Made by a program: the position numbers and the translations under genes. A DNA stretch of 63,895 bases, filler included, from Perkinsus olseni (lineage: Eukaryota): NCBI GenBank assembly GCA_013115125.1. It is 7 parts of 7 records of this genome, joined end to end, with 100 filler letters (N's around TTAATTAATTAA, not from the genome) between each part and the next. Parts side by side here need not be neighbours in the genome. Positions count along the whole stretch, not along the records: positions 60,966 to 63,895 come from JABANN010001476.1; 6 more parts are not named here. One strand, 5' to 3'. A model generated the notes under the pieces. The model did not search any database. It had not been told where the DNA came from and saw only the letters and a program-made list of their open reading frames with translations. Positions 23,195 to 63,895 of this stretch are shown here, piece after piece. The first letter of the stretch is position 1. The number at the start of each line of letters is the position of its first letter.

Positions 23195-23276
23195 CTAGGA
23201 AGTTACCTTAATTCTCGCGATTCGCAGATCAAATTGAGACCCACTGCGATGAAATGAGCAGCATGCCACATACCTC

Positions 23277-23326
<50 letters not shown>

Positions 23327-33865: not shown

Positions 33866-33965
33866 NNNNNNNNNNNNNNNNNNNNNNNNNNNNNNNNNNN
33901 NNNNNNNNNTTAATTAATTAANNNNNNNNNNNNNNNNNNNNNNNNNNNNNNNNNNNNNNNNNNNN
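33866..33965. other. Artificial contig linker
   Basis: N-run with TTAATTAATTAA. Confidence 0.98.
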
Positions 33966-35410: not shown

Positions 35411-35524
35411 GTGGAAACTGGATTAAACACATCCGACACGGTAGTTTATACGAGTCACACGTGAAACGTTTACCGACCTCAACCAAACAAACAGCGCCTG
35501 CAAGCACAGGCTGAGCAATTGTGG
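35411..35524 (+). repeat. Dispersed repeat B, copy 2 (114 bp)
   Basis: Ungapped similarity to 32168-32281, which is on a different contig. Confidence 0.8.
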
Positions 35525-35600
35525 GTCACGCACAGTGGGTGTATTGGTCCATGATTATTGAAGCAGTACTGCGAGTACCCGGTCAACCACTATGGTCATG

Positions 35601-35625
35601 ACTCGACTCGACTCGACTCGACTCG
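35601..35625 (+). repeat. Pentanucleotide microsatellite (ACTCG)5
   Basis: Directly visible. Confidence 0.9.
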
Positions 35626-36521
35626 AAACTTATTGCCAGGCTTTACGGGCAGGAGCCCATAGCCCTATACACGCCCCGCGCGAGCAGCGCCCGAGAAGGC
35701 ATAACCAGCAGCACAGAGCCTCATAGAATATGGCAATTGTGGGGTCAGCTTTACAATGACTGCTGATGGATGGCTTGGTGACTAAGCAGCGATGCGGCAG
35801 CAGGCTGAGGATCGGCACGGCCCTCGACTCGAAGGAGTGGGCTGCGCCCACTGGGCATTACGGGAAGAAAAAGAAGTGAGAAGAAGGTTAACACACAAGT
35901 TGCCATGGAAACACATTTAAGAGATAGTATGAGGATGTGCAATGATATGGTCGTGCCAATACCGGTCACCAACAAGGGGGACGTGCATGTATGGCAGGTT
36001 CGGTCTATACTTTGTACCGGAGAACCCGGGGTCATGACTCATGTGGTCGACTTTTCTGTTTCGGGCGTGCGCTAAAAATGTTGAGCTAGTCTGTTCCGCG
36101 CTAGCCCCAAGTTGGTCCTGCGTGCAAAGGTCAGGGGATCTTGCCCGGTGACATTTTGTATTACTATTCAAGGCGCATAGGGCGTCCTGCTCCGGAGGTA
36201 CCAGAGTTTAGTAGGGTCAATCGTCTCTACATAACATCAGAGTACATCGGGGCTTGGAATTTGCTGTTTTCTGTTGCTTGGGGAGGGGTTGATTACAACT
36301 GCCAGAAGATCCAGCTGCTCTCTCGGAGAGTGTCTCCTGTTGAGGTATACGCCAATCGCTTACAATCGTCAGGTATAGTGATTTCTGTCTGGGTCGCGCG
36401 TCGTTCTCTTCGTTGGACTAAAGAATTTTGTGACGTTGATCACTTCGGATTGGATTGGTCAATACGGTACCGCCGCTCGGCAACCGCACTGCTCTTCTTG
36501 TCAGTGTTCTGTCATCTACCG

Positions 36522-42145: not shown

Positions 42146-42892
42146 AGGCTATCGACGTCCTGACTTAATGATCTAAGGCTGGTGCCGTTGCCCTCCACGG
42201 TGTTCAAGTTGACTGTCTGGTGGGTCATGGTCTCGCCACCAGTTTTTGCCGCAGCTACTGGTAGCCCGTAGCGAGCAACGGTCCACCACCTCCTGTTTGT
42301 CACCAGTGTTTGCCAGAGTTCTGTTACCATCTATGTGGGTATACGCAACCCACCTGAGGATCTGATTTTTATTGAATTTTTCGGCGGCCTTTGTAAGACG
42401 TGGCTGCCCCAGTAGAAGCGGCAGGATAGGGCGTTATGCTGCTAATGGCTGATCTGTCAGCCTAGCTTATTATAAATACTTGCTGCTACTTGGACGTATC
42501 GCATTGGTTGTTGTGTTGTAGTCACGCTGAGGTAACATGAGAGAGTATACACGACGAACGCGACGATTGTTGGTGGGCCTGGATGAGCAGCAGTAGCTAC
42601 AGACCTCCAGTGTAGTTTAGGTCTAGTGTTATGGCCTCCTCGTCGAGTAAGCAGCAGCCTACAGGGTCTCTCCATGCTCAACGGTCTAATGAATGGGCCG
42701 AGAAGTGTAGAATATTGATGGACGAGAATGCAGAGGAAGACAAGCATAAGGCTGATATGGTACTAGTGAGTAGGAGTGTCGCTGTTTAAGCAGTAGAAAT
42801 GATACGAGGGACTTGGTTCACTGTCGCTCCGCTATCTCCTTGAACTGCCGTCGCTTACATAGTGTTGGGAAGCTCAGGTCCTCCAGCGGTAT

Positions 42893-43152
42893 TTGACTCT
42901 AGTCGAGCAACAGTTTGAGGGCATCCTATCCAATATACCAGATGGGGTTCTCAACATGAAAGTGAGAATTACTCTGCCTGTGCATGCCACCATTGTGTGG
43001 GGCTTGGTCCCCGATACCGGGACCTACACCATAGGCTCTTCCGGGTTTGTCATAGGTATCAGAAGTAGATCCGAAGGCACTGAGGCCGATAGCGCGTATA
43101 CTCAGGGCGCGGGACGAGTCACCCGACTCCTCAGAGAACCGAGAGCCTAATA
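42893..43152 (+). CDS. Small spliced hypothetical protein (3' exons), weakly Borealin/Nbl1-N-like
   Basis: QQFEGILSNIPDGVLNMK, a GT-AG intron, then VSEVDPKALRPIARIL. The family resemblance is by eye only. Confidence 0.3.
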
Positions 43153-43876
43153 GGTAATGTAGACGTTTGAGACAGCTATTATGTCTAGCGCCGTTTGACA
43201 GTCTGTGATCTCCAGGCCGGCCGATTTGCCTCCTCGTCCGCAAGCCTCTGGCCCTGTGGTTGCTACTCCTAGAGATGCGAAGCATGAGGTTAGTAGTGAA
43301 TGGAATGGCGGGGGTGGCGGGCTGGTGAGGATCTTTTGACGTCTAATCACCCTGAGTATTCCACATCTTTTCTCAAGGTGTACAGCATGAAGAAACTGTT
43401 TGGTGGCGGAGGAGGCAATAAGACGGATCCTAGCCCAGCACGCGCGTTGAAGCCCCGAGTACTCTAGCGGGTGTAGGAGGCTGAACACGTCGCCGGGCTT
43501 GAGATAATTAGCATTCGTCGCATATGCAGTGGGTTCTTGTGTTGATCACAGCTGATAGAAGATGCTTCTGTCCGAATGCATCCTTCGCGTTATCAACACC
43601 TCCGAAAAGTCGTTTCGTCGAATTGACTTCGTTTGGATGAAGGCACTCAAACCTTGTAGGACAGAAGGATCTCGTGCTCACGCGCCAGATTCCTGCGCAG
43701 CACCAAGGTCATGCTTGGCCAGGAGCAGGAGAGTACGTTCTCAACTTACTTTACGCAAAGGCCTAGCCAACACAAGTGCTAGACTGGTGTGTCCCGTGTG
43801 TTCGGTATTGATTTCTCTTCCTCACTCAATCAGGCTTGCCTCCTACAGTTTGTAGATTGTTGTTCCCCTTAGTCTC

Positions 43877-45090
43877 ATGGCCCTTTGTTGTAAGCGGCGG
43901 CGTACAGCCTCAGCTCCTGGGAGACCAACGACTATATCGTTCTTCAAGCTCTTCAGCCTCGCTTCTAGAACTGACTGGATTCTATTGGCTGTTGGAGTCT
44001 TCGCAGCCTCTATCAACGGCGCCGCCTTCCCAGCGTTCTCTTTGTTCATAGGCGACTTCATGGACGAGGTCGGGACCAGTTTCGCGACGGGAGATGTCAC
44101 GGGTATCCTCAGCAACGTCCGAACGGTTTCGCTGCGACTCGTTGTGGTCGCGGCTGTCGCATTTTGCAGTGCATTTGCCTGGGACGCCATCTTCACCTAC
44201 TGCTCTACCACCATTACTACTCGCATTCGAATTGGGTACTTCCGCGCGGTGCTGAACCAAGATGTGTCTTGGTTTGACCAGGAGACTCCTGCAGCTTTGC
44301 CGTCTAGGATGAACGAAGATATTTTCAAAGTACAGGAGGCCATTGGTTATCGTGTCGGTCTTACCGTGGCCAACTTCTTCCAGTTCGCATTTGGCTACGG
44401 TGTGGGGCTCTACAGAGGCTGGCAACTAGCTCTGGTGATGATGTCGACGATGCCTTTGCTCACTGCATCCATCGCAGTACTATCTAGGAGGATTGCCAAG
44501 AAGACTGCAAGGGCTCAGGATTTCTACGCGGAGGCCGGCGCTGTTGCAGAAGAGGTCGGTAGGGTGAGTGGGATGTCCCACGGACGAGATATTTGCATAA
44601 CTTAACCTGCGCCTCCTGCTACCTTCAGCCGCTAGGCTCAGTAGCAGGCCGGTATCCTAAAGAATTGTTTAATAGTGTATATGGCCCTTCGGTGTATACG
44701 ATACAGTGCCAGGCTGGCGGTGCCAGCCAGCCTGGAGGATAGTGATGTTGCCTTCTATCAGGTACTCTCGGCAATGAAGACCGTTGTTGCTTTCGGTGCC
44801 GAGAAGCGTGAAACTGAGAGGTACGGTGCGAAGCTTGTCGCAGCTCGAGACGGCGAGATTAGGGCTGGATTCCATAGTGGAGTCATGACGGGCATTGTAT
44901 TTCTCTCCATCTTCTTCACCTACGCCCTGGTATTCTGGTATGGTGGCAAACTTATTTACGATGGCACCAACAATCCCTCTACCGGTGAGCCTTACAATGG
45001 AGGTAACGTCATCACCGTCTACTTCGCCTGCATTATGGCGACATTTGCATTGGGGCAGATAGCCCCCAATATATCCTTTTTCATCGAGGG
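43877..45090 (+). CDS. ABCB (MDR/P-glycoprotein) transporter, first TMD, truncated by contig end; intron 44555-44761
   Basis: ISFFKLF, YFRAVLNQDVSWFD, GWQLALVM, YAEAGAVAEE-VLSAMKTVVAFGAEKRE, YALVFWYGG. Confidence 0.92.
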
Positions 45091-45190
45091 NNNNNNNNNN
45101 NNNNNNNNNNNNNNNNNNNNNNNNNNNNNNNNNNTTAATTAATTAANNNNNNNNNNNNNNNNNNNNNNNNNNNNNNNNNNNNNNNNNNNN
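45091..45190. other. Artificial contig linker
   Basis: N-run with TTAATTAATTAA. Confidence 0.98.
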
Positions 45191-46126
45191 ATATGTGACT
45201 GTCGTGTTATCAAGTTGGTTTGAATCTTCTTCACAATATTGAAATGCCGCTGAGGGAGTTTAAACGGCTGAAAGACATTGAAATTCGCAACTCCGGAGCG
45301 CTGTAGAAGAATACATGTCGATTAGAATGGCGTGCGCGGAAATCACGCGCTGACAGCACTACCCTCCATCGCGCTTATTCCTGGCATATTTCTCCACGAG
45401 CGTGAGGGGCATAAACGGGTGCGAAAGGTCTTCGATTGCCACTGTATCCTCTGCGTCCATAGTCTTCATGCTGAAAACGTGAGCAATTCTTACGGTTTCC
45501 ATTTTACAATTAGCTTTTTGGCATTCTATTCCCCACCACCACCTCCACAGCCATGGCTTCGTCATCGACTACCTTTTGGCTGGCCTACATCTTCATATGC
45601 TGGTGGGTGCTTGGCCCAGCTGTGCATGCAGTGAGGGAGGGTTTGGAGGCATTCAGAAGATCTACTGCTCCCCTGTGTGGTGATGCCCCAATTGACATCG
45701 TATCGGGAGGCCTGCTGATTTTCCTGTGGTCAGTCTCATGGTTATGGTTCAACCGTTACTTCTCAGTTCCGTGCACACTCGCTAATTCGAGTACCATAAT
45801 CAGTATCACTTGAACTGCTCTCCGTGATACTATTGTCTGCTGCCCGTCTATCGCTTGAACTGGGGTCCGAGCTCTGAACTCGGGAGCCGAGAACGTTATT
45901 TCCTGTGACAAATTTTTTCTTATCAAATTCATAACCTACGGAAGGCAGGTCTCCCTTTATTCAAGAGTAGATGTTATTGAAGTTTCGTATCGACAGAGCG
46001 GAGGTAGAGCAGTCAATTGGCGGGTATAGGCAATACCCAGCTCTCACGACAAACATGTTCTCTGCTCCAGCCTTGACGGTTCAGACAGAACTAAACCCTA
46101 GCGGTGCGGGATAGTCTTTCCGTCAG

Positions 46127-47880
46127 TTGTTCCATGGCCTGATGAGTCTTCTGGATGATGCCATTGCCCGATACGAAGAGTCCAGAGAGCTGTTGTCAGT
46201 CGACGATGACCCTGTGAACCAGATGGTCATATCTTCACTCTTCGAGAGTGAGGGCTTTGTGGTTCACCAAGCCATGGATGGCTTTGAAGCTCTCGAGCAC
46301 ATGCAGAACAATCCGCTGCCGGACCTTATCCTCCTCGATGTTATGATGCCTGGAATGAGCGGTTATGAAGTACTCGATACCCTCAGAGCCGAGTAATGCC
46401 GCGGAAGCCGAAGGACGGCTACTGTAGCTGCCTGTCAGGTACCCTCCAGATCTGCCGGTGGTCATGATATCCGCTAAGGCCGCTGTTGCTGATAAAGTGG
46501 AGGGTGTCGAACACTTCTGTAGGCTAGGCATGGTCTGACAGTCTCGCATCGCCACTCGCCGGCAGGTAATGATTACCAGACAAAACCTTTTGAAAAGGAG
46601 GAGCTCCTGGCCAGAGTTCGATGCCTCATCATACTGAGGCATATGATAAATGCTCATTTTGCGGGAGGTGTGGGAGGGGGGGACGGCGGAGGAGGAGGGA
46701 GTGATCAAACTTCAAGTAGGAAAGACTAGATAGACGACCAGTGATGCAGCTGCTGAGCTCGTGCTTTTTGGGATAGTGCTGAGCTCCAGTCGGTCCCGGC
46801 TCACATGCTGTCGTCCGTTTAGTGATGAAGGCCTTGCCACCTCACATTGCTGAGAAGATCAAGCAAGGCGAGTCGAATATTAGTGAAAAATACGACAAAG
46901 CCTCCTTCCTTTATGTGGTCTTCGATAAGTAAGACGATGTGGCAGGCCGCCCGTGCTTTATTGGACATCGGCGTTCTAGGTTCGCAGAAGTAGCAGAAGC
47001 CATCCCGTTGCCACAGCTGCTGACGTTACTGAATAAGTTGCAGACATCATTCGAGGAAGCGCGCGAGACCAGTAGGTCATCGCCGATGGGATTTTGCTTG
47101 GCGTTGCCGCGACTTCCGGTCACGAGCTCCTCCGTGTGGTATCACAGTCACGTCTCGTAATCTACACGAACGGACGCGGGAATCACGCCAGTAGCTGTGC
47201 TGTAGACCCACTAGGGAGGTGTCCGGGAACACTGCTGCTGTCTTCAATGATCATCATTAGGCTTTGAAGCGATACACTTGAAGTTTGTGGGTGTCAACAC
47301 AATCGCCGTCGCCGGCTTCGACGACGAGAGTGCGAACTGCGAGGAGCTACTCTGTGGGTTCGGCCAAGAGTGCTTAGCCAGAGCTGCTGAGGTCAGCAGG
47401 ACGCGAGGCCAAGCATCCTACAGTGACTCGCTCTCAGATTATGTTAGGAGATTATCCTATCTCCAAGTTGATGAAGATTGGCATACATACTGGACCAGCA
47501 TTTGCAGGTACTGTGCTCTTCACTCGAAGCAGTGTGTTACGCGACTTCCACACCATTGGGTGCTGGAAACGCCCTGATGCCCGTATGCGTGATGGAGACG
47601 CTCATACTTGCGTGTAGGTCTCATTGGTAGCGCATTCGCCTTCATGGGGTCACCGTCGCAGCTGTCCAGGCAACTGGCATTGGGAGGCGTTTGTGGGTGA
47701 GGGGAGGAAGCTAAGGTGCTGATACGATGGTCGGCACCCGACACTGCTATCAGACACGTCCATGTTTCCAAGCCCACCAAGGAGGGTGCGGAGGCCTCGG
47801 CTCCCGGCTCGTTCCACTTCGGAGAGAGAGGCACCATCAAGATAGGAGATGAGTTCGTGGAGACATTCCTTGTGAAACGG
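46127..47880 (+). CDS. Response-regulator receiver domain plus degenerate class III nucleotide cyclase domain, multi-exon (5' exon possibly at 45553)
   Basis: REC: LSVDDDPVNQ, PDLILLDVMMPGMSGYEV, PVVMISAK, DYQTKPFEKEELLARV. Cyclase-like: LPPHIAEKIKQG, LLTLLNKL, MKIGIHTGPAFAG. Confidence 0.8.
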
Positions 47881-47899
47881 TAAGTGGCCCTTTGAGCAG

Positions 47900-50323
47900 A
47901 AGGCGCTGATGCTTGATGAGCTCAGATCGGAAGATGAAGACTTGTCAGAGTACAAGACAGAGGCCTCGTTGAATAACAGCGGAGGGGATACAGTAGCCTA
48001 CTGGTTGCGGGTGAGGGTATGTGGATGGGGGACAACTGTTCAGGCGGAAGGACTCCAGAAGAGAGTGAAGGAACTGGAGGCTCAGCTCAAAAATATGATG
48101 TCTGGTAGGATTGAGCCTGCGACCTCTCCGCTCCTGCAGCGCTAGTATCTCAGGGGATGGTGGCGATGACGCCGAGGATTCTCTCGCCAAGGACGTAGCG
48201 AAGTCAGGCCAGGTTCCTGTCTGGGCGTGCAATGGTAAGTCAGGGTCTACGTAGAAGTGTTAAAGGTGTTCTCTCGAAAGGTATAGCGGAGCCTTTGGAA
48301 AGTCTCATGGCGGCTTTAGAGGCCACCGTCTGTACTGGAGACAAGGGCAAACAAGACGATGGAGGAGAGGCACCAGTCGTGACCAGCCTAAGAGCTGTTG
48401 AGGTAATGAGCATGTGCGGGTGGGGCTGGGAAGACGGGACGAGATTGTCAGGGCGAGATTGGAAAGCTCTTCGAAGCCATCAACGCCATTGAGGCTGAAT
48501 CGAGGGCGACTCAGAAGACGGTGCAAGATGTGGCATCGGGGAAGGTATCTGGAAGGGGGGAGTCTGGCTGAATTGCTAGTATGGGCTTTGCGTTTCAGGT
48601 GGCATTGAAGGGGGATAATGTGAAGGGAGCTGGTGGATTCAACCTAGCAGATGGTAAGCCACTGTGGGTTACCCGAGCATAACTGCGGCCTTCTCAGAGG
48701 ATCGGGAGACCCTGAACACTATTCTCGAGGGGTTGGACGCTGAATTCACGAAGCTGCAGGATGGAACACCCAAAGCACCAGCTAGCGGCGTTGGTGTGTC
48801 ACCAGGTGGGCATCCTCCCCTCAAGCCCTAGCTGCTCATGCATGGTTTTTGTAGGAGAAGTGGACGCCATCGTGAAAGAGATCGAGACGGTTATGAAGAC
48901 TGTTGGGTCTCTCGAGAAGATCTGTCAGGACAACACTGCAGCTGTAATGTCTATTGCGGAGTCCTGCGCTCCGCTCTCATCGAGTCCGCGTTTGATTCCG
49001 GCAGGTAAAAGAAGCCAAGAGCCTTATAGACGAGAAGCAGAAAGAGATAGAATCCTTCACGGCTGGAGGGGCTTCCGAAGCCGCTAAAGCGAAGGATGAC
49101 GGAACGGACTTCTTCGCTGGTCAGTCAGACGCTTGAGTTCTAGAGGAACATCGTGTATCTTCAGACGCGGCGCTCACGGGCACTGGGGAGGGCCAAGCGG
49201 CAAGCGGAGAGCCGACGGTGCCGGCTTCCGAGCTAGCTGCAGTGAAGAAGGAGCTCGAGGATACCAAAGCCGTAGGGGTGTCGACCTTCATGCTATTCAT
49301 CGATGTCTCCAGGCACTCATCTCGGCCAAGACCGCTGCTGCCACTTCTGGTGGTGGTGGCGGGGTGGAGGCCATGATGGGAATGATGTCGGCCATGATGC
49401 AGCAGCAGAACCATGCGGCACATTCTCAGAAGGTGGGATCCTCATCTATCGGGGGGATATCTAGGGGACCTTCTCAGGAGCCTTCCCGGGGAGCTGACGC
49501 CGGGGCTGGTGGAGGTGGGCACCTCTTGCTGTCGATTATGTAGCCAACTCTGATATTGTGAGGTGCCGGCGGCGTTATCAAGATCCAGCTCGAGGCCTTG
49601 GAGGCGGAATGTGATAGACTTCGCCATGATGCAGCGCAGGCGAAGAGCCTCGCTACTGAGGTGGTGTTTTTGAAGAGGCAGGTTGCCGGTGAGAGGAGGC
49701 ATAGTAGGCGGAGGTCCACTGTGTGATGATTATGCCACGCAGAGCTGGAAATGGAAGGGACGATGAAGAACACAGATGCTGATACTGTGGAGTCGCTGAA
49801 GGTCCAAGCGGAGAACTCAGTGAGGCTCATGGTAGCTTCCGCGCCTCCCTGCCGATGGTGTGCAAACCGGAGGTACTCTCGTCCAGACTGTTACTGATGG
49901 AGAGGCAGATGCTGGATATTAAGGCACGGAACAAGGTGCTCGAGGACAAGCTCGCAGTAGGAGGCGACTGCTCACGGTAGCTGCCCCCTACACATCTCCT
50001 CAGCTTGTCGGGCGAACGGCGAATGACGATAAGATAAAGCAGATCGTCAACGACGCCGATCTTACCTTGAAGGATGACCTGGATGGTGAGGGTGGCTTAC
50101 ACTACAACTCAGGGGAATCTTCCTTGTGACAGTAGATACCCCGACCGTCTCAACTTTGGCCACACTGCTGGCGATGAGCAACAGGGCTCAGGAGGAGATG
50201 CGGCAACAGATGGAGATGCTCATAGAACAATCCAGGGAGTAGGGATTCACGATCATCTGTACCCCTGACGAGCCTCCATCAGGCAGCAGACACAGAGGCC
50301 TGCACTGGGCTTCGCTGGTCTGA
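47900..50323 (+). CDS. Coiled-coil-rich exons, probably the C-terminal part of the REC/cyclase gene
   Basis: Series of short heptad-rich exons (LQKRVKELEAQLK, QLEALEAECDRLR, LLAMSNRAQEEMRQQME) between ~50-nt GT-AG introns; boundaries approximate. Confidence 0.5.
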
Positions 50324-52557
50324 CTCAAGGGAGTCGTCCCTCCAGGGGGATGCCTCTGCCGACCCACTTTGACTCGACTATGTAGGTTCTCACTCAGCCG
50401 AGTTAGAGCGTTAAGTCGACAGCAGCGTGCTTCCGGATGAACATTGGAAGGTTTTCTATCAGGCGATCCACTGGGGGATTCTCCCGGACGATGGGTTGGC
50501 CTCAAGTATCCACCAAGCGCTACCGTCCTATTTACTGATGATCCAGGCTGCCCTTGTCTGTGCTGCGTCGTGTTGGGCTTCCGCCTCTCATGCTCATCCT
50601 GTTGTTGCTCGGCACGATAGCTTTCGACTTGGAGTAGCGAATAAGGCGGGGTCGGTGCTCAGCTCGATTGCAGCATCGGTGAGGATTATGACGAAGCGTC
50701 ATTGACTCTTGAACGATAGAGCTAATCTACATCCGTGATCTTGGACTGTGCTTGACTGTATAGTCCTGCGCTGCAGATTCTGCGGAAGCTGCTACCGATC
50801 TGATCTGGTGGTGTGATACAGAAGCTGCTAATAGTGTTGGCGATCAGATTCATGGTGAAGTGGTAACACTATCGCGACTGTGGTTGCCACAGTCACTCGG
50901 CTGGTAACCACAGTTTTCTCGCTCTGTTGCTGAGCTTGTGTCACACGGACTCAGCAACAATGCAAGGGAATACCTCACGCAAATCATGTGACCTGCGATT
51001 CGTAGCGGCAAGACCTCTCGCGTGGCCGAAGTTGATACCCAAAATTGATGTCCTGGCAGCAATCCTGCACAGGAGGATCGGCGTGCAAAGGGTCATCCAG
51101 GTACTTCTGTTGTTCCCAGAGGGAACATCCTCCCGACGCACAAGAGCAAGTTGCTGTCAGCAAGTTGGAACACAAACCACCAGCCTGGTGGTTTGCGTTC
51201 CCTGGTGGCACAAGGTGGTTCAAGGAACTACGGTGGTTCCTGGTAGGCTCGCGTTTTGCGGTAGAGGTAGGGAAATGGTGAGTTTGTGCGTCACTGACGC
51301 CGTTACAGCGTTCAATCAACGCAAGAAGTAGGCATGATAAGTTATCATTGATAACGAAGCATGCATGCTCAATGAATTGCCACGTTGTTCTGCGATGATC
51401 TATGTGCTGCCTGATAGTATCCTCCGCAGGCTACACTTCCATATATCGAAAGCGGCCTCTAACAGTGTTAGACTAACACGGACTCTATCTCTCGGGCCTT
51501 GTCTGAGTCATCTCTCGGCCGCTCCTGTTCCTGGAACAGGAGTGGACCATCACACCTGGGAAGTCTGGGGCTCTTGTGGCTATACGCACCACTTGGCCCA
51601 GCCTCTCGGATTTGAGCCCTCGCCGTAGTGATGTAGAGGCCCTAGTGAACTCGAGGAACAACGCTCACAGCTCACTGAGCCGAGCGGGTATGTGGCGAAA
51701 GTCGGCGACAGCGTAATGTAGCGTAAGCCCGACGTTGGCTGCTTCCTCAGGAGGCCGCCGAACTCCGGAGGCCGGAGGAATCTGATGATGATATCCGTTT
51801 TCTCTCTGTAGATTCGCCGCACGATTCGTGTCGTGTGACACGAGCCGCTGGGCGGCTGCCTCTCACTCATGGTTATGATCCTTTCTCCCGTGATCGTTCG
51901 CTTCTCTTCCGTCATTGCGAGTTTGACAGGCACTGACTCAGTGCCACTGAGCCAGCCTGAGCCATTTTGTTGGCCTCATTGACACTGTTGAACAGTGACT
52001 GTTCACATGACTTGGGCCACGTGTGCATTCCACATCATTTCATTGATCCCCATGAACATGAGAAATTCAGTGAAAAGAGTATACTGCATTACTGCATGAA
52101 GGCTTCAAGAGACTTGTTGATTTCATGCGTGACGTGTTCCTCAAGTTATGTATGTATCACACATAATGTACGTATGGGATGGAATCAAGTACGCGTTGTA
52201 TCAGGTGCGCTCTGTCACTATTGCGTGACGATGCAATCGTCGATTGCGTCGACGATGTAATCATCTCGTTGGAATGAAAGAAAAGCAGTTTTTGATTCAA
52301 TTTTGCCATCTTTACCCAACCTGCTTGGGCCAAGCATCTATGACGGGTTCTTCAGAATCTAGTATCGACGACGCCGGCCAGAAGAAGAGGTCACCTTCGT
52401 CTATAAGTAGTCGAGTTCAAAAACCAGAATGCATCACGGAGGCTGAGTGGAGAACGCGTCCAAGAAGTTCACATACGTGGACTAAATTTTTGAGTAGTCA
52501 AGGACTGCCTCCCAATGAGAATGTGTGCCATGACTGAGGCTCAACAAGGGATGAGGG

Positions 52558-55500
52558 TGTTGTAACAGCTCACACAAGAGCGTAATCCATGGTGGAATCG
52601 CACAAGAGGGTTAGAGGATCGAGTAAGAGAGCAAGTGACCAAGGTATTGGTCAACATCCTCCCCCCCTTTCAAAAAAGTGTGTATACATCGTTAAAGGCA
52701 TGTGAAGCGTGATTAATCATCAAAATGGAGTGGATGTAAAAGGCGTATACATAGCAGGTAATGGAGAAAAAGGTTTACAACATGTCGTGTAAGAAGAATG
52801 CAGAGTGAAAGTATACAGCAGATACTAACACGTAAAAGTGAATTAAGATGACTCGGTCGCAGTGTCGTTGAGTAGATCATTATCATCGTCGTCTGTGGGC
52901 TGAAAGTCTGCGTAGGTGTCGTCGATGAGGGGTTTGATGTTCTTGGTATGAACATGTCTCCCATCAGTAAGGAGAACTCTGTTGTCTCCTAGTACTTCTT
53001 GTATCTGAATGGGTTCGCTCCAGCGAGGTTGGTCTTTACGTGGTTGGTGTTCGCGAACCAAGACGGACATTCCGGCTTGTAGGGGAACGAGTATCTCGGA
53101 CACAGGAATGTGTGAGGTAGATCGTTGTTGTGCACGTTGTCGATGTTGTCGCCAAATAGAGTCCTTGTCGTCGACGGTATGGTACTGAGTGAAGGAGACC
53201 AAATCATGCGCCGGGAAGTTATAAATAAGATCTCGTGGGCACAAACCATGAGCACTAGGAGACATCATCAAGTTGACGTGCATAGTAGCCAGCTGGACGA
53301 TATGAGTCCATGTGCGATGGGCAGGACGTGATGTTATCGGTGGAGTAGACTGTAGAAAGCCAAGACGGATGAAGCGAGCGAGATCTCGATGTTTACGCTC
53401 ATGTCCACCATTGGAGACTGAGGCATACGTGGGAGTGAACTCCCAATCAACAGTGGGTAGTTGATGAGCAGCCCTGCAAAAAATGCTCCCGTTATCAGAG
53501 CGGATACGTTCTGGGATAATGCCGTACGTGCAGGTGAGTGAGTTCAGGAACTCGATGACGTCAGATGTTAACGGAGCAGTAGATAAGGGCTTGCAGATGA
53601 GGTAAGTCGTTAGTCGGCAAGTGCACGTAAGGACATAGAGGTTGCCGAAGTACGGACCATGTACGTCTAACGCGATGTCAGAGAAAGGTTGTCGGGGTAG
53701 TGCTGGTGGTGTAGGGCGTTGTTTCCATGCCAGATCACCAGCGTTAGTGAGTACCCTGGCACACAGAAGACACGTACGGGTAGCAGCCGAAATCGTATCG
53801 AGCATCTTCGGCCAATGGTAGAAGGCTTTCATACGGGTGTACGTAGCCTGGGTCCCCTCGTGGTATGTGTCGTGATACAATGCAGTGAGAGTGTGTTGAA
53901 GATCGGCATCAGGGACCTGTGTAATACCATCGATAACTTCCAGAGCGCGAAGGCGCAAGATCAGATCATCAGGAAGTCGAGTAAAGGCGTACTCGACGAG
54001 ACGAGTAGAAGGTAGGTCGTCAGTGGTTTTCTCAGATCGAGTGGAAGATGAGCTTGTGCTAGCAGCAGCCGTGGGATGTGCATCTAGAGAAGCTGGCGAG
54101 TGACAGCGGTGTAGGCCTTGGGGGGAGTGTTGTGAGTCGCGGGGGTCGCAACCAGGTGGGAGATCTGGATGTGGATTATCGCGTTGAGCAGACCGGCGTT
54201 GGCGAACACGTTTAGCAATGCTATCATCAGCGAAGGAGTCATCGCGCTTGCGCACCGGGAAGGCAGTGTGACCCGAGGGAGGAGGGGCGTCCTGTTCTGC
54301 GCGCTTCTGCTCGCGGCCGAGGTCGTCGTAGGTTGCACGAACTTTGCAGATGTTGTCGATGAGGTCGGAGCGAGTGCCAAGGTCAGCAGGGTTGTCCTGG
54401 CCTTTGACATGGACGTAGGTGATCGGGTGGGTGCCGGAGATGGCGACAATGAGTTCGAGATACTTGCGAGTTAAGGCTTCGTGGAGACCAGCAGGGACTC
54501 GGCGATCGCGAGCGATCGCGACAGCGGTGAGAGAGTCGCAGTAAACCCTGATGTCGGAGAACTTCATCTTAGTGTCGAACTCGATAAGGCGGACCCGTGC
54601 AAGGGCAAAGTAGATGCCAATGAGCTCTAGCGCGTTGATGTGGAGGTTCTGCTGAGAAGACGTGAGCGGCAGCTGTCCGCGGATTACGGTACGACCGAAC
54701 TGACGACCATCGTAGGCAACCATGGTCTTAGAGGCGTCAACATAGAGGTGGAGTGGTTCGGTGGCATGGATACGGCGAGGGATCGGTTGTGGTTGATGGT
54801 CGCGTAAAGAGGAGACCCATGCACATAGTAAATCCTGTACCTCAGGTGGAAGAGGCGAGTTCCAGGAGTGCTTGAGCACAGCTCGGGCTTTGCTGACCAA
54901 ACCAACGAGTAAGTTCTTGGCCGGAATGATGTGGTAGTCGAAGAGGTCAGGTTCTTGTAGTAGAGTACCGAGAAGGCTGAGAGAGTCCGTGTAGGTGAGG
55001 GGATGGTCGAGTGGCCAGGCAAGGACAGTAGCAATAGCTGTAGGGGGATAACGAAGGGAGTCGCCACCGTCAACGAGCTCGAGGCCCAAAACAGGGATAG
55101 GGTGATCCGCGGAAGCATCCGAGAGCGCTTGAGTCTTGAGGGGTAGGTCGTGTGCGGTGTACTTGTCGATGAGAGGGGCAGGCTCGTCAGTAGGTTGGGT
55201 AAAGTCGAGAATGTCGTCCATAAAGGAGCATTGGTCCGGCTCGTCGCGGTCGGAATCGAGAACGTGGTCGACGTACAGATCAAGACTACCAGCAGTATCC
55301 AAGTTTGGGAGGGGTAGAGGGCGCTCGACAGTAGGGAGGAGGTGCTGCTCGACGTGTCCCATGCCGCCCTCGAGGCAGGACGGGGCGATAGAGCTACCAT
55401 AAATCATGCGGCTAAACTGGTAGTAGCCGTTGCGCCAGTAGAATTGAAAGAAGGACCCTAGGGCTGACGATACGCGGAACTTCATAAAAGCATCGGACAC

Positions 55501-56312
55501 ATCGTGGAGAGTCACCGTGGTAGCCAGACGCAGTCGCGACAGGCAAGTCTTGAGCTTAAGCTGCTTGTTGGGGATCGGATCGCACCGCATAAGGGCCCGC
55601 AAGAAGGTGTTGGTATTGATCAATGGCAGAACGGGGCGCCACCGTTTGCGCCCGCGGACTCCGTAAAAATCGGTAGTAAAACGCGTGACAGCAGAAGAGT
55701 CGATACGGTGCATTTGGCCGGAGTCGGGGAAGGCCTGTAGCTTGGCCTCGCAGTCGAGACGACCCTCCGGTGGGCACTGGAGCCACTTGTAGTGAAACTT
55801 GCGACAGGGCTTAGGGTGTAAGGTTTGGGCGTGAGCGTGGACTTGCTGTGAGATGTCGACGTAGAAGAAGGACTCGGCGGTAGCAGTTGTGACTAGAGCA
55901 AGACGGAGCCAGCGGTTCTGGAAGACGACGCTCGTGATGGACCAGCCAGATGGCAGAGGGTGGAAGGAGGGCTCGGCAGCAAGAACCTGGCGTAGTGTAG
56001 ACTCGTCGATGAAAGTGGTACGGCCGCGTTTGGGTTGGTGTGGGGTAATAGTGAGAGACGTGTTGAGAGACTGTGCTGGCACGGCGGAAGAGTCGTCGCT
56101 GTGACAGAGCAAAGAGGAGGCAGGGTGGTTACCAGTAGAAGTGGCCACGACTAATGTGCAGGTCGCATCGAAAGCAACGATATCGCGACCTAGCAGACCA
56201 TCTGTAGTTGCAGCCAAGGGGGTGTAGGTGACGTAGGGAGACCTAGCAACACTCGCAGCTGAGCTGCTAGAAGTGTAACACAAGATCCGGAGATATTGGG
56301 CTGCGATGGAGA
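52558..56312 (-). mobile_element. LTR retrotransposon, 3' part (pol, PPT, 3' LTR), cut by contig end
   Basis: pol ORF, then polypurine tract GAAAG(G)nAGGA at 52657-52671 abutting TGTTGA at 52656. Confidence 0.88.
52843..56310 (-). CDS. pol: Pol polyprotein (end of PR, RT, RNase H, integrase), 5'-partial
   Basis: LLGRD (protease end); DVSDAF, MIYG and FMDD (RT); YVDAS, HINALEL, YCDS, NPADLGTR (RNase H); HHCC zinc finger; DVHGP, SDNG, GGHER (DDE integrase). The frame is open to the contig edge. Confidence 0.9.
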   Translation of the reverse strand, partial: SIAAQYLRILCYTSSSSAASVARSPYVTYTPLAATTDGLLGRDIVAFDATCTLVVATSTGNHPASSLLCHSDDSSAVPAQSLNTSLTITPHQPKRGRTTFIDESTLRQVLAAEPSFHPLPSGWSITSVVFQNRWLRLALVTTATAESFFYVDISQQVHAHAQTLHPKPCRKFHYKWLQCPPEGRLDCEAKLQAFPDSGQMHRIDSSAVTRFTTDFYGVRGRKRWRPVLPLINTNTFLRALMRCDPIPNKQLKLKTCLSRLRLATTVTLHDVSDAFMKFRVSSALGSFFQFYWRNGYYQFSRMIYGSSIAPSCLEGGMGHVEQHLLPTVERPLPLPNLDTAGSLDLYVDHVLDSDRDEPDQCSFMDDILDFTQPTDEPAPLIDKYTAHDLPLKTQALSDASADHPIPVLGLELVDGGDSLRYPPTAIATVLAWPLDHPLTYTDSLSLLGTLLQEPDLFDYHIIPAKNLLVGLVSKARAVLKHSWNSPLPPEVQDLLCAWVSSLRDHQPQPIPRRIHATEPLHLYVDASKTMVAYDGRQFGRTVIRGQLPLTSSQQNLHINALELIGIYFALARVRLIEFDTKMKFSDIRVYCDSLTAVAIARDRRVPAGLHEALTRKYLELIVAISGTHPITYVHVKGQDNPADLGTRSDLIDNICKVRATYDDLGREQKRAEQDAPPPSGHTAFPVRKRDDSFADDSIAKRVRQRRSAQRDNPHPDLPPGCDPRDSQHSPQGLHRCHSPASLDAHPTAAASTSSSSTRSEKTTDDLPSTRLVEYAFTRLPDDLILRLRALEVIDGITQVPDADLQHTLTALYHDTYHEGTQATYTRMKAFYHWPKMLDTISAATRTCLLCARVLTNAGDLAWKQRPTPPALPRQPFSDIALDVHGPYFGNLYVLTCTCRLTTYLICKPLSTAPLTSDVIEFLNSLTCTYGIIPERIRSDNGSIFCRAAHQLPTVDWEFTPTYASVSNGGHERKHRDLARFIRLGFLQSTPPITSRPAHRTWTHIVQLATMHVNLMMSPSAHGLCPRDLIYNFPAHDLVSFTQYHTVDDKDSIWRQHRQRAQQRSTSHIPVSEILVPLQAGMSVLVREHQPRKDQPRWSEPIQIQEVLGDNRVLLTDGRHVHTKNIKPLIDDTYADFQPTDDDDNDLLNDTATESS

Positions 56313-56412
56313 NNNNNNNNNNNNNNNNNNNNNNNNNNNNNNNNNNNNNNNNNNNNTTAATTAATTAANNNNNNNNNNNNNNNNNNNNNNNNNNNNNNNN
56401 NNNNNNNNNNNN
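56313..56412. other. Artificial contig linker
   Basis: N-run with TTAATTAATTAA. Confidence 0.98.
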
Positions 56413-56483
56413 TACATTATTATAACGATATAATAGATTATTAATAGTAAATATATACAATACTAGATATTAATATATATAAT

Positions 56484-56540
56484 AACCCAGCATTTATACC
56501 ATATAGATATATTATAGTATTAATTATTGTATGCTGGGTT
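56484..56540. repeat. GC-clamped inverted repeat
   Basis: AACCCAGCAT ...37 nt... ATGCTGGGTT. Confidence 0.85.
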
Positions 56541-57654
56541 TATAAGGTATATATAGATATAATGAATACATACACTATAATATTATATATAAATAACTAT
56601 ATCTATTAGTTAGGTTTATCTATTATTATATATTTATTGGTTATATTATATTTATAAATATGTATATAGTGTATTATTATATAATGATTATATATTATGA
56701 AATAACCTATATTAGTATATATTATAAAGATTACCATATATTGTATATTAATATCAAGATAATACCTTAGTTTATAATATATTATAGTATATCATATAGG
56801 TTTATATAAAGATAACTAATATTATATCCATATTATACTATTATTACCATCATTTAATACATATTTAGGTTAATATAATATTAAGTATAAAATATATCAT
56901 AAAATATCATATAAATTATATATATAATGATCTGTATAATAGTATATAACAATAATATCACATTAAATATATATTTATCAAAGGTTGGCATTTATATATT
57001 TTAATATAGTATAATATATTGTAAAGGTCTAGGTTTTATCTCTGGTTGGTAATTAAATATTATATTATATGCTGTGGGATACTATTTAATATTTATTATA
57101 TATATATTGTAATAATGTCCCTCTAAATACAGTATATATTATATTTACTATCTATTAATAATAAATTACATTAGGATATATTTATATCTCCATGCTAAAG
57201 CTTATATATACATATAGTAAATATAGAATTATATATATACAGTACATTATTAACCATAGATTTATTAATATATTATTTCCTATTTATATGGTATTAGGAT
57301 TATTATAAATTAATATGGTATAATACCCTTTAATATTAATAAATATCTATAATGTCCTAATAATACCTATTAGATAAATAATTATATATATATTATGTAT
57401 TCAATAGACTATCTTAATAACCATACAGTATTTCAATATAATATATATTATAGGTATATGATGGTATTATATATAACTAAATATTATATTTATATAACTT
57501 ATACTATACTTTATCATAATAGATTACTAAGTAATATTTATAGTATTATCTATTTATAAGGTATTATATTATTAATAGACTATTATAACCTAAATATGAT
57601 TATTATTGCCTATATGAATAAATTATAGATAATATATAAACTAATGAAATATAC

Positions 57655-57745
57655 TAACAATATATAATAAACTGCCATTAGACGCTATTAACCCAGCTAA
57701 TATATCTTATATTATAATGAACTATTATCTCTAATTATTATATTT
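57655..57745 (-). rRNA. Mitochondrial LSU rRNA fragment, LSUG-like (H92 A-loop and H93 of the peptidyl transferase centre); ends approximate
   Basis: Minus strand ATAAT-AGTTC-ATTAT (A-loop hairpin, 57714-57728), then AGCTGGGTTAATAGCGTCTAATGGCAGTT (57670-57698), matching bacterial 23S AGCUGGGUUUAGAACGUCGUGAGACAGUU. Confidence 0.85.
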
Positions 57746-59701
57746 TATATTATGAATATTGATAGGTTATTATAATGATATTAACTACTATATGGATACA
57801 TTATATATATATTAATATGACCTTAATATCCCTATAGGTATATACTCTATGGATAAATATGTTATTAATAATACCTATCTTATAATATCATACTATACCT
57901 TAAAATATGGTATTATTTATATGTATTTTATAATTATAATAGTTTTATGATTGTATTTTGGTATTATAACACTTTTATAGATATCATTTATTAAAGGTTT
58001 AGAGAATATAATCTATAGTATATTTATTAATAATAAATAATATATATTAATAATGGATATTTAAATAAAGGGAGACCTATTATATGTATATCTATATATT
58101 ATAAAATAGTGTAAATACTGATATCATATTATAAATATAAGTATATATGGTTAATTAATAGTAAATATACCCTTATTAATAATTAATATAGTATATAACC
58201 ACCATAGTATAAGGTAATAACATAATATAGTATATACTAATAATTTAATACCATAGATAATATATATTATAATCCACTAATAATAAATATAGTAATTAAG
58301 TATAAATAATAACATGTGGCCTTGGTTTTATCTAACTAGATATTATATGATCTAATTATATCGATAGGTATTATACTGGTACATAATATATTATAATATA
58401 ACCTATCTATATGGATAAATATAATATATAAACCTATAGTGTTTACTAATATCATGATTTAATACTAATATCTAATTATATCATATTATCATATATATTA
58501 AATCTATATTTATATAACTTTATTATATAATATATTATATCATGGTATATTTCATTATTAATTTAATATCACTATATTATATTTACTTATTATTAATTTC
58601 TATCACTATTTCATATTAATTTAGACCCTATTATTCATATATAATATCTATTTTAATGTAACATCATTTATTATCATATATTATACTATAGTATTATATT
58701 TGATCTAATATTATTTATAGATATGGTATAGTATTATTTATATATAGTTTATTATACATATTTATAATATTATCAATATTAATACCAGATAAAGTCTATT
58801 ATTTAATATATTATTAGTTTAAGGGCTAGGTATATTATTATAGTATAAATATCTATATATTATAAATAGGTAATATTAGGCCATAGATTTAAAGGTGATA
58901 TTATACTAAATAGATCTATAGAGATAAATAATGATATAATAATATAATGTATGGTAATAAATAGAATATAATATAATAACCTTATCATATATATAAACTA
59001 ATATACCCTCACTAGATATAATTATAATATAATGATTACTATTTAATGTGATATTGATAATATCCAAGATAATATATATTACTATGTTAATCTAGTTAGT
59101 ATATCTCCATGGTTTACTGATATTATATACTATATAGATATATATATGGCTTTTATCATAATAGAATAGATTATATATAGCCTTTCCTTCATATATATTT
59201 ATGGTATTGCTATCGATAATATAATAGTAATAAAATACACATTTAATTAGATATTATTAGTTAATCAAATAATGGATATTAGTATCATTAAAACTATCTA
59301 TTAATAATATATATTATATCCTATAGTAATAGGTTTATATAATAGTAATATAATTATAATTATATATAGATATACTGTATTTTATATCTTAATAATATAT
59401 ACTAGATTTATAGGATCTTATTATATAGTTTATATTATACTAACCCCATTGATCTATTAATATTGGGTATTTATTTATATTTACTTATATCTAGTGAGTA
59501 TAATTAATAATAAATCTATAGTATTAAATATTAACTTTATGATAAGTATATATTAATAAACTTTATGATGATTAGACCTTATATTTCCTATTAAGATTAT
59601 ATACTATTTATTAGTTATAATCAATAGGTTAAGGTAAAGTGTTAATACTTTAAGATATCTCTATATAATTATTACTATATGTACTTATTTATATATTAAG
59701 A

Positions 59702-59755
59702 TATAGCCCATCAATACTATTAGGATATAATATTATAAATACAGGATGGGCTATA
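59702..59755. repeat. GC-clamped inverted repeat
   Basis: TATAGCCCATC ...32 nt... GATGGGCTATA. Confidence 0.85.
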
Positions 59756-60345
59756 AATACATTATCAGGATATTAATATACTTTATATAATATTATACCT
59801 AATGTAATATATATTAATACATTTATATAGTTATCTTATTATTATATGTAATATACTATATTTATACGTTATATACCAGTAAATATTATTATGTTATATA
59901 TTATGGTAATACTATCAATATGGTATATAATTTATTATATTAATATGGAATATCCTATATAATGCCATACTCCAGGATCTATACTTTATCATTAATTTCA
60001 TATTATCTTAATATTATATCTATTAATATTATCATATTTATTAAGGATTACCATATTATTATAATTATTAGTATTAGATAAAATTACCAATCTATATAAA
60101 TATCCTTATAATATCTATATCCCTGGATCCCTATACCCATATAAAGGATATAATATTAACATTCCTAGGTTAGGGATATCTATAGATATAGTATTATTAT
60201 AGTGATCCTGTATAGTAATATTTAACCTAATATTTAGTATATTTATAAAGGGATATAATTACTATTTAATATGGTATATGATTATATTATAGTAACATAA
60301 GGTATACATAGATATTATCAATAATAATAATATTACAATGTGATA

Positions 60346-60402
60346 ACCCAGCCTTTAATAAATATAATAATAGTTAATATCTTAATAAACATAAGGCTGG
60401 GT
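60346..60402. repeat. GC-clamped inverted repeat
   Basis: ACCCAGCCTT ...37 nt... AAGGCTGGGT. Confidence 0.85.
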
Positions 60403-60710
60403 AATAATATAATCTATATTATACTAAGTATATATTTATAAGTTTATCTATGGAGTATTGGTATTTATAGATCTAGTTAGTCTTTTATATCCTTTATTAA
60501 TTAGTAATATTATTGATTTATATATAAGATAATAAATATAGTCTTATTAATAATATATATATTAGTAGTTAGATAGACATATAAATCTGTATTGTATAAA
60601 TATTAAATATTAAATATTAATTATATTATATTAATATGAGGTTATATTAGTGATATTATTAATGGTATAATTATATAAAACAAGGTAAATTATATTTATT
60701 ATGCCCCTAT

Positions 60711-60769
60711 ACCATGCCCTCCATATTATATAAGTATATTTAGTATTAATTTATAGTTAAGGGCATGGT
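60711..60769. repeat. GC-clamped inverted repeat
   Basis: ACCATGCCCT ...39 nt... AGGGCATGGT. Confidence 0.85.
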
Positions 60770-60865
60770 TTTATCAATGGAGAGTATAATACTATTTTAT
60801 CACTATAGATTAATAGGGTATATTATAAGTTAGTAATAGATTATTAATATTATATATATATATTA

Positions 60866-60965
60866 NNNNNNNNNNNNNNNNNNNNNNNNNNNNNNNNNNN
60901 NNNNNNNNNTTAATTAATTAANNNNNNNNNNNNNNNNNNNNNNNNNNNNNNNNNNNNNNNNNNNN
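60866..60965. other. Artificial contig linker
   Basis: N-run with TTAATTAATTAA. Confidence 0.98.
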
Positions 60966-61544
60966 TATTGTTTATTAATAGTTTAGAGAGTAATATATAT
61001 ATTATAAATATAAGTTAGTATTATATAGTAATTATAGTATATTAATATAGGATATAGTATACATTATAATATAGTTATCTATATATTGATCTGTTAATAC
61101 ATTTATATATATATAATTATATACTCCATTGACTTTATTTATTATTAACCTCTCCATGATATAATATTATATCACTAAGATCCTATAATATAATGTAATT
61201 ATATATATTATTGTATACCTATAGATAGTAATAACCTATAAATAGTAATAATCTATATATATAATATATGTACTATCCTTTATAATGATATTAATAATAA
61301 TATAAAATATATAGTCCTTTATAAATCTATAGTGTATAATTATAATTATTAATAAATCTATATATCTATAGTGTAGTTCTAATTATAAATATTATTAATA
61401 TATTCTATCAATATCGATATTATAGGTTATATTACCAAGATATATTTATATTATTACATTATTAACTAGTGGGCCCATATATAATACTATCAATATTATA
61501 TTAATACCTAAATATACTATATTATCTTATAAATTATATTATTA

Positions 61545-61591
61545 ACACCCGCTATATTCTAGTATAAATATAAATATATTACTGCGGGTGT
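61545..61591. repeat. GC-clamped inverted repeat
   Basis: ACACCCGC ...31 nt... GCGGGTGT. Confidence 0.8.
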
Positions 61592-62720
61592 ATATTATAC
61601 ATGTAATCATATTATTAATAGTATATAAACACATATATATAGTAATAAATAATAAAAATAACCTTATTATTAGTATTAAGTATATATCATATTATATTTT
61701 TGTGGGCATGTTAAGGTATTGATCAATTAGGTATTAAATGATAAATATATTAATTTATACTTATTAGTATATATATATTTATGTAATAGTATTTATATTG
61801 TATACTAACATATGATATAAGATATTATTTAAATATAGATTATCATAATAGATTAATATATTCTATAGAGGATATCATATAATTATATATAATCATGGAT
61901 ATTATATTGTCTGTTATATTATTATAACAGATTCTTATGTATCAATCTCTAGGGCCTATATTAATATAATCAATATCCTTATTTTATTATAATATTACAT
62001 TATTTATATCGCCAGAGACCTTATTTATTATTGTATATCTAGTTATAATACTATGTATAAATATATTATTGTAATCTATGGTGGGTTATTAATATAATAT
62101 AGCCCTTCAGATATAAATTATAGTAAACTATGATATTAATAATAATTATACCTATAATAATAATATTTATAAATAAACTTAGGAATTATAATAATATATA
62201 ACTGAGTCTCTATTTTATAATAAGGTAATATAAATATGATTGAGACCCTTATAAATAATTAGTGATAATATAGATAATATAATAATATCTATTACAATAA
62301 GATAAAGACTATATATATAATATAATACATAATATCCTATATATATAAATAAGGGCCCTTAATATAAATTAATGTATTATATCACATACAATATTTACTA
62401 TTATTTTATTATTGGATCATAGTATACCTAAGATATATATTTATATAACCTAATATGCTAGATTACTATATATTATTAAACCTATACTTATATTTATAAA
62501 TTATATTATTAGTTATTCCATATTATATCAATATTAGATCTATAGGATATATAAATAATAATAATGGTGCCCTATAAATAGACATATACTATATATAAGA
62601 TCCATAACATATTAATACAATATCAGGATTAAAGGTATATAGTAATAACAATAATAATGGATATAATATGTACCTATTTATACTATAATATAGGATATTA
62701 GATTATTAATAATGGTATAA

Positions 62721-63435
62721 TTATAAGTATAATAATATTGATATTATAATATATAATACTTCTATTAAATGATAATAGATATTTATATTTATATAATAAT
62801 TATTTATATTTTTATAATTTACATAATTATATACTACTATTAATATTATACTATAATATATATGTATATAATGTAATAATATAATATAGAAATAACTAGT
62901 CATATATACACTATCATTTGTATAATTACTATTATTTTTGTATTCTAATATAATTTTATTATTAAACATATAATTATTATAATATATTAAATAACTTAAT
63001 ATATATTTATAATATGATAATATATAGTTATAATATTTTATATTTACAATTGTGGATAATAATGTTAATAATATAATATTATTATATACTATGTTATAAG
63101 AATTTAATATTAATATATTTACATGATAATAATTTATATAATTATGATAATATATTCAGTAGAAACTTACAAATAATAATATTTCATTACTAATAATTAT
63201 TACTACTATCCATAATAATATTTTATAATCTAATACATTTAAATTTAACATATCTAATATATTATATTTCATTCATATATTAATATTTATTAATAATAAG
63301 TTACTATTATATACTGATATTATATTGCTATTATTATATATATATATTGATATTATTACAGTTATTATTATACCTAATATAGTTATAATTGATAATGTTT
63401 ATATTTAATTCAAATGTATTATTGTTATATATTAT
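62721..63435 (-). CDS. cox3: Cytochrome c oxidase subunit 3 (mitochondrial, highly divergent; TGA=Trp; candidate +1 frameshift at AGGT 63375-63372; start uncertain)
   Basis: Hand translation is open from 63398 to TAA at 62721 apart from two TGA codons (63275-63273 and 63158-63156). Motifs ISNEILLFVSFYWIYYH (cf. LSEVxFFxSFFWAFFH), NDSVYMTSYFYIILLHYIH (cf. DSVYGSTFFxxTGFHGLH) and YYHLIEVLY (cf. YWHFVDVVW). Confidence 0.88.
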
Positions 63436-63779
63436 ATGTTATTATTTTGATTATTATTACTATTGTTATGAATACTTTTTATTGTTATTCTTTAATATTA
63501 ATTATTATAGTATTATATCATATATTAGTTTATGGCTGGAATTATATAATATAATATAATTTATTAATGATAATAATATTAGTTTAAATCCTATATATAA
63601 TATCTATAACTAATAATAAATAGAATATTAGATTAAAATAAATATATTTATAATAATAGATAGATATATAATATAATATTAATATTTACATTACATATAA
63701 TTATATAATAGTATATAGATTTATAGATATATCAATATTAAGGCCATATAATAGATTATACCTTGATATAGTATTATTA

Positions 63780-63832
63780 ACCCACCAGTTATTGTATTAT
63801 ATATTAATTTATTATTATTTGTACTGGTGGGT
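63780..63832. repeat. GC-clamped inverted repeat
   Basis: ACCCACCAGT ...33 nt... ACTGGTGGGT. Confidence 0.85.
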
Positions 63833-63895
63833 ATATCTGTATTAACCTATATTTAATGGTGTCTATAGGTATCAGTATAATATTAATAAAGGGTA

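Follow-up and report, generated by a model that had tools for sequence, protein, structure and literature searches.

Introduction

Frameshifting by +1 at a hungry codon is known from the yeast elements Ty1 and Ty3, where a rare AGG (Ty1) or AGU (Ty3) stands in the A site and no RNA structure is needed. In Ty1, the P-site Leu-tRNA slips on CUU-A and the next codon read after the shift is a Gly codon, GGC; the efficiency is modest, and it sets the ratio between the protein products.

For the mitochondrial genes of Perkinsus, Masuda et al. (2010; PMC2952869) defined a UAGGY motif in cox1 and put forward two mechanisms, which are the skipping of the A of AGG, or decoding by a tRNA that reads four bases. 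The mitochondrial DNAs of four Perkinsus species, of 40.9–95.1 kb and 82–86% AT (GenBank ON035645–ON035649), are described by Gornik et al. (2022, Mol Biol Evol; PMC9550989), who count ten shifts in cox1 and eight in cob, often at conserved Gly or Pro, and one in cox3. The divergent Perkinsus cox3 was identified in that work, after having been missed by BLASTx with 74,641 COX3 proteins, and it is reported to have a single AGGY shift and no further codons for Gly or Pro. TGA for Trp and the TAA stop are described as conserved and ATG as absent, with conserved Phe and semi-conserved Asn codons as the candidates for the initiator. Other COX3 proteins do not conserve the Gly at the cox3 shift, which comes so early in the gene that the growing peptide is still inside the ribosome (PMC9550989). 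The same article reports that Cys (TGT) is absent from all Perkinsus mitochondrial genes, and gives mRNA ends from circular RT-PCR for cob and cox1 alone. In 2024, a cryo-EM preprint (10.1101/2024.05.25.595893) found one COX3 frameshift independently, from the density, and places chain 40 among the chains that needed manual shifts.

Few known cases of obligatory translational frameshifting are as extreme as that of Perkinsus, which bears on what ribosomes do when they face codons that they cannot read. The gene, its code, the single AGGY shift, the paucity of Gly and Pro and the odd start were already published in 2022, and the cox3 locus that we describe here is a correct rediscovery of them. 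The instance itself adds nothing new; its practical value is that reading the raw sequence recovered a gene that had been missed by BLAST-type and Pfam searches.

Results

Composition of the window and the AT-rich contigs

The window, i.e. the whole stretch of DNA that was analysed (63,895 bases), is not one molecule, as the listing of its N runs reveals seven contigs joined end to end. Twelve runs of 44 N, paired around TTAATTAATTAA, form six identical joins of 100 bases (Table 1). These joins are artificial, so that neighbourhood across them carries no meaning. The last two contigs are AT-rich organellar DNA, and cox3 is found on the second of these, where the 300-nt windows wholly within the gene have a GC content of 9–12%. 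We considered that cox3 could be a nuclear copy of mitochondrial DNA (NUMT), and dropped this reading because the AT-rich DNA forms a contig of its own beyond an artificial linker, with no junction to nuclear DNA, and because cox3 is intact.

None of the 43 other ORFs of at least 35 aa on the two AT-rich contigs has a Pfam match, and cox1 and cob are absent from the window. No tRNA genes were found on these two contigs, and no Rfam match at E up to 1 was obtained across 56413–63895. Among 17 sequencing runs listed, 15 contain all or part of the stretch and 10 contain at least half of its words. The runs containing it span eight studies, four are marked as a possible source, and no RNA run is listed as containing it.

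Table 1 Features of the cox3 locus and of the window that contains it (positions along the window)
Feature	Position	Strand	Remarks
TAA, 5′ boundary of the upstream frame	63439–63441	-	
Upstream-frame block, at most 21 sense codons (HIIYNNNTFELNINIINYNYI)	63376–63438	-	no ATG
TAA closing the main frame, 8 codons 5′ of the Gly	63399–63401	-	none of the 8 codons is ATG
+1 frameshift site AGGT	63372–63375	-	preceded by T (UAGGY motif)
Downstream-frame block, 217 codons, Gly (GGT) to last Leu	62724–63374	-	214/217 identical to 9fq7 chain 40
TAA ending the unshifted upstream frame, 12 codons past AGG	63334–63336	-	
In-frame TGA (Trp), residue 55 of the 238-aa reading	63273–63275	-	Trp in the solved chain
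In-frame TGA (Trp), residue 94	63156–63158	-	invariant FFW-motif Trp (alignments)
cox3 stop TAA	62721–62723	-	
cox3-bearing AT-rich contig	60966–63895		2930 bases, 9–18% GC (300-nt windows)
Contigs 6–7, AT-rich	56413–60865, 60966–63895		9–19% GC in 300-nt windows
Contigs 1–5	1–11301, 11402–22591, 22692–33865, 33966–45090, 45191–56312		~47–57% GC
Artificial linkers (44 N, TTAATTAATTAA, 44 N)	11302–11401, 22592–22691, 33866–33965, 45091–45190, 56313–56412, 60866–60965		

Reading frames of cox3

The main frame of cox3 lies on the minus strand and comprises 225 sense codons (63398–62724, genetic code table 4), directly followed by the TAA stop. It is open only when two TGA codons are read as Trp, and its sole TGG is at 63212–63210. 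Under table 11, the region shows only ORF pieces of 82 aa and 38 aa. These results uphold the first-pass annotation, which had noted that the ORF track was limited to the last 82 aa, and that with two TGA codons read as Trp the frame stays open to 63398; its other boundary, 62721, corresponds to the final base of the TAA stop.

To relate the length of this frame to its surroundings, stop-to-stop runs were counted on the two AT-rich contigs with TAA and TAG alone as stops. The next longest of these runs (n = 1444) has 69 codons, and none of 2000 composition-matched shuffles reached 225 codons, the maximum being 93. The 225-codon frame is thus far beyond chance.

The 5′ end of the gene involves a second frame. 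The codon listing bears out that the main frame is closed by a TAA eight codons before its Gly, with no ATG in between, and that an overlapping frame, with AGG as one of its codons (63375–63373), is open for 21 codons back to a TAA, both of which had been claimed at the outset. One base further on, the downstream frame has its Gly codon, GGT (63374–63372). The upstream frame, with 22 codons, is matched in length by ~11% of the runs in the AT-rich contigs and so is within chance alone; its weight comes instead from its translation, which matches the N-terminus of a solved protein (see below). Past the AGG, the unshifted upstream frame continues for 12 codons, one of them TGT (Cys), before its TAA.

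Identity of the encoded protein

The shifted product (table 4, AGGT read as Gly, 238 aa) matches chain 40 of PDB entry 9fq7, labelled ‘Cytochrome c oxidase subunit 3’, with E 1.2e-118 and 226 of 230 residues identical. All 230 residues of the chain align end to end with residues 9–238 of the query. The title of the entry is ‘Perkinsus marinus Respiratory supercomplex CII2CIII2CIV2 in c1 state’, and the structure shows the P. marinus orthologue as a physical subunit of complex IV. We link it to the preprint 10.1101/2024.05.25.595893 through this title and the chain label ‘40’. The window protein differs from the chain in four residues and in nothing else: Ile/Leu at 63378–63376, Tyr/Phe at 63035–63033, Tyr/Asp at 62855–62853 and Ile/Val at 62747–62745 (window/chain). 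On account of these differences, the window probably stems from a different strain or species of Perkinsus. Like the cox3 genes reported from Perkinsus species (PMC9550989) and the 9fq7 chain, the window gene encodes a divergent COX3 of the kind that BLAST-type searches miss.

Two other solved COX3 chains were matched, 8c8q_C (E 0.0035) and 7jro_c (E 0.0064), and the motifs FFW, EY, DSVY, H..H and H..E/D.V are aligned with both of them. The second TGA pairs with the FFW Trp of these two chains, and it is found at a Trp that is invariant in all four aligned COX3 sequences, in agreement with the earlier proposal that one TGA falls at the conserved Trp of the SFFW motif.

In a full HMMER search of 1.84 billion representative proteins, three matches were obtained at E up to 0.001, and all three score above the cut-off of the Pfam COX3 family PF00510 (32.7, 90.8 and 81.5 bits). 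The window protein shares with these three Pfam-positive COX3 proteins the invariant Glu, Trp, His, Asn-Asp and His..His positions. When it is itself compared with the PF00510 profile, as the first-pass annotation had suggested for the full translation, the outcome is divided: the alignment is colinear, with residues 7–224 on profile positions 19–254 of 258, whereas the score of 8.4 bits (E 2.4) is under the 23.8-bit gathering cut-off, because of the extreme composition bias of the protein. Colinearity with the profile is what it has in common with canonical COX3, and it may share the seven helices as well, which are predicted with low confidence (see below). It differs from canonical COX3 in having other residues where Gly and Pro are widely conserved.

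The best library match (P0002, 251 aa) is a low-complexity, Ile/Leu-rich COX3 that is 45% identical to the query over the matched stretches, the best-scoring of which covers query residues 54–194. It has a Pfam COX3 score of 32.7 bits and keeps several Gly, Pro and Cys. This protein could come from a relative outside Perkinsus.

The single-sequence AlphaFold2 model has seven helices and low confidence (pLDDT 60.5, pTM 0.40). With this low-confidence model, the only COX3 chain returned by Foldseek was 9fq7_40, which was matched through sequence (99% identity, TM 0.25); there were no further matches. No orthologous protein was found among 2697 candidates with the 238-aa query, nor among two with the 82-aa ORF as query. 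Related loci were sought in metagenome contigs, with none confirmed out of 436 pattern matches, and in viral contigs, with none out of 30. Eight metagenome loci, retrieved with a degenerate DNA pattern for FYWIYYHNY that includes the TGA, were rejected as chance matches, since they match at the pattern alone or as low-complexity noise (tblastn with table 4, 21–31% GC).

Amino acid composition

Fifteen kinds of amino acid make up the 238-residue COX3, and codons for Pro, Cys, Ala, Arg and Gln are missing. Ile (55), Tyr (43), Asn (42) and Leu (30) account for 71% of the residues, followed by Ser (15), Val (14), Lys (7), His (6), Thr (6), Phe (5), Glu (4), Met (4), Trp (3), Asp (3) and Gly (1). 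The single Gly codon of the gene is the GGT of the shift site, as the first-pass annotation had it. AGG is used nowhere else among the 238 decoded codons of cox3, and neither is any other Arg codon. Gornik et al. (PMC9550989) stress Gly, Pro and Cys, and in the parts of the article consulted the absence of Ala, Arg and Gln from COX3 was not seen mentioned.

Evidence for the frameshift

Chain 40 of 9fq7 starts with FELNINIINYNY, and these 12 residues are all identical (12/12) to the translation of the upstream frame from TTT 63414–63412. From residue 14 (Gly) on, the chain corresponds to the downstream frame, with 214 of 217 residues identical. The P. marinus chain is therefore a product that joins both frames; its residue 13, at the junction, is Leu, and the window DNA gives Ile there.

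These data bear directly on the possibility of a cox3 with no shift at all, which would start in the main frame at a non-ATG codon (TTA, ATT or ATA) just past the TAA at 63401–63399, the upstream frame being a chance run. NCBI table 4 permits starts at TTA, ATT and ATA. ATG is missing at the cox3 5′ end in both frames, and the upstream frame is, as noted above, of a length that about one run in nine attains in this DNA. The N-terminus expected from such a start, TLSIITILG, which the first-pass annotation had kept as its alternative, is not the one in the solved chain: the 12 N-terminal residues of chain 40 are absent from the main frame and exist only in the upstream frame, which rules out an unshifted start for that protein. 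In addition, the preprint (10.1101/2024.05.25.595893) fitted the frameshifts to density without prior information, and nucleotide conservation in four species covers the region that requires the shift (PMC9550989). An unshifted start of the window gene is, on these grounds, very improbable.

We regard as extremely improbable that the change of frame is a one-base error of the assembly, or that it is removed by RNA editing, so that the mRNA would be one continuous frame. Homopolymer-poor, extremely AT-rich DNA is error-prone in some assemblies, but Gornik et al. (PMC9550989) report that RNA-seq reads, transcripts and Sanger cDNA clones equal the genomic sequence, and that the shift site is present in all four taxa. 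The P. marinus chain, which was built independently, implies the same extra base.

All support for the frameshifted product comes from the P. marinus orthologue and from the published papers. Taken together with the reading frames, it makes us highly confident that the locus is a Perkinsus mitochondrial cox3 in which TGA encodes Trp, and which has a non-AUG start and a +1 shift at AGGT. The initial proposal of a cox3 that starts at a non-ATG codon of the upstream frame and shifts at this site is thus supported by the identity to chain 40.

Sequence and structure around the shift site

The site reads ATT AGG T (63378–63372), with AGG in frame, a U before it and a Y after it, and the GGT is followed by 216 open codons. 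It fits the Perkinsus-type UAGGY sites in that AGG is otherwise unused and that the unshifted frame runs into TGT and TAA. The likeness to the UAGGY and CCCCU sites of Perkinsus cox1 and cob (PMC2952869, PMC9550989) extends to the arrangement U-AGG-Y, with +1 movement to GGY (Gly), and to the lack of a slippery heptamer or a downstream structure in the sites as described there. The RNA from 63445 to 63300 is less structured than 200 of 200 shuffles (z +2.83); since the RNA around the shift site folds worse than the shuffles, there is no stimulatory hairpin.

A flanking consensus of 26 nt, WWWTAWWWWYTAGGTWTAWHAKTWAT, was published for these sites (Gornik et al. 2022, PMC9550989). The cox3 site agrees with it at 22 of 26 positions, i.e. 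with four mismatches. Among the 66 AGGY sites of the AT-rich contigs, one has three mismatches and three, the cox3 site included, have four. The consensus therefore does not single out the cox3 site, and sequence context alone is no proof of a frameshift.

The site with three mismatches, at 60214–60239 on the minus strand, is the only fit in the window with at most three, and was rejected as a shift site. Its GGT is directly followed by TAA and there is no coding frame around it, so that we take it as a chance match in AT-rich DNA.

Proposed course of translation

The two coding blocks one base apart, the AGG at their junction, the UGA codons for Trp, the UAA stop and the joined product can all be taken from the sequence or from the orthologous structure, and the published model suggests how they may be connected. 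Translation would start at a non-AUG codon of the upstream frame, between 63438 and 63412. Candidate initiators are two ATA codons (63435–63430) and Asn or Phe codons; in the solved orthologue the first residue is the Phe of TTT 63414–63412, upstream of which the open frame contains the two ATA and three Asn codons. The ribosome would then translate up to the ATT at 63378–63376 and meet the in-frame AGG. With no cognate tRNA for AGG it would stall, until a Gly-tRNA enters on the GGU that lies one base downstream, in the +1 frame. Another 216 codons, with the two UGA read as Trp, would lead to the UAA at 62723–62721 and yield a COX3 of ~230 residues.

The shift would have to be close to complete, because complex IV contains COX3 in stoichiometric amounts and there is no useful unshifted product. 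Its near-obligatory character sets it apart from the shift of Ty1, as does its P-site codon, AUU, on which slippage would mispair.

The frame could instead change with no stalling, if a tRNA of its own decoded the four bases AGGU as Gly, which is one of the two mechanisms of Masuda et al. (PMC2952869). By sequence alone, this cannot be separated from stalling, as both yield Ile-Gly. We consider it unlikely, since Gornik et al. (PMC9550989) state under a heading of their own that all tRNAs are imported and that none is predicted to decode codons of four or five nucleotides, and report no mitochondrial tRNA genes, in line with the AT-rich contigs of the window. Moreover, the pattern of unused codons also accounts for the +2 sites and for the TAA site of cob.

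The position before the Gly allows for a further variant. The chain has Leu there, whereas in the window DNA the upstream frame reads ATT (Ile), and a Leu codon (TTA) is present in the downstream frame alone. The likeliest origin of this mismatch is a substitution in P. marinus, or a choice made in stitching the two frames together during model building. The ribosome could, however, shift one codon before the AGG, by reading UAU, skipping an A, and continuing with UUA (Leu) and GGU (Gly), so that AGG never enters the A site. The chain does read Tyr-Leu-Gly, where skipping the A of AGG would give Tyr-Ile-Gly, and TTA is the +1-frame codon at exactly this point. The published YTAGGT consensus (PMC9550989) would, by our reading, make the +1-frame codon always Leu. 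Against such an earlier shift, the P. marinus DNA may differ here, as three other residues of the chain differ from the window protein, and the Leu may be the stitching choice of the modellers. Furthermore, ATT is a common codon in cox3 (nine uses), so that nothing would stall the ribosome before it. The earlier shift is in our view quite unlikely. If it were true, for which the P. marinus DNA would have to be identical at this site and the density would have to show Leu, it would contradict both the skipping of the A of AGG and the AGGY quadruplet, and the conserved YTA of YTAGGT would be the Leu codon of the new frame. We retain the stall at AGG, with GGU read next, as the preferred course.

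Other features of the window

Six perfect inverted repeats are present on the AT-rich contigs (56484–56540, 59702–59755, 60346–60402, 60711–60769, 61545–61591 and 63780–63832), whereas 300 shuffles contained 0.01 on average and never more than one. They have G+C-containing stems of 8–11 bp, three of which start with ACCC and one with ACCA, and AT-rich loops of 31–39 nt, with predicted hairpin energies from −14.7 to −19.6 kcal/mol. They may be signals for processing, replication or recombination, or short structured RNAs. When the main text of Gornik et al. (PMC9550989) was searched by terms, inverted repeats in Perkinsus mitochondrial DNA were not mentioned there.

On the fifth contig, which is nuclear, a long ORF on the minus strand (52846–56310) encodes a Pao/BEL-type retrotransposon polyprotein and reaches the contig end. 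Its domains score 24.8 bits for Peptidase_A17, 42.4 bits for Integrase_H2C2 and 29.2 bits for the rve core.
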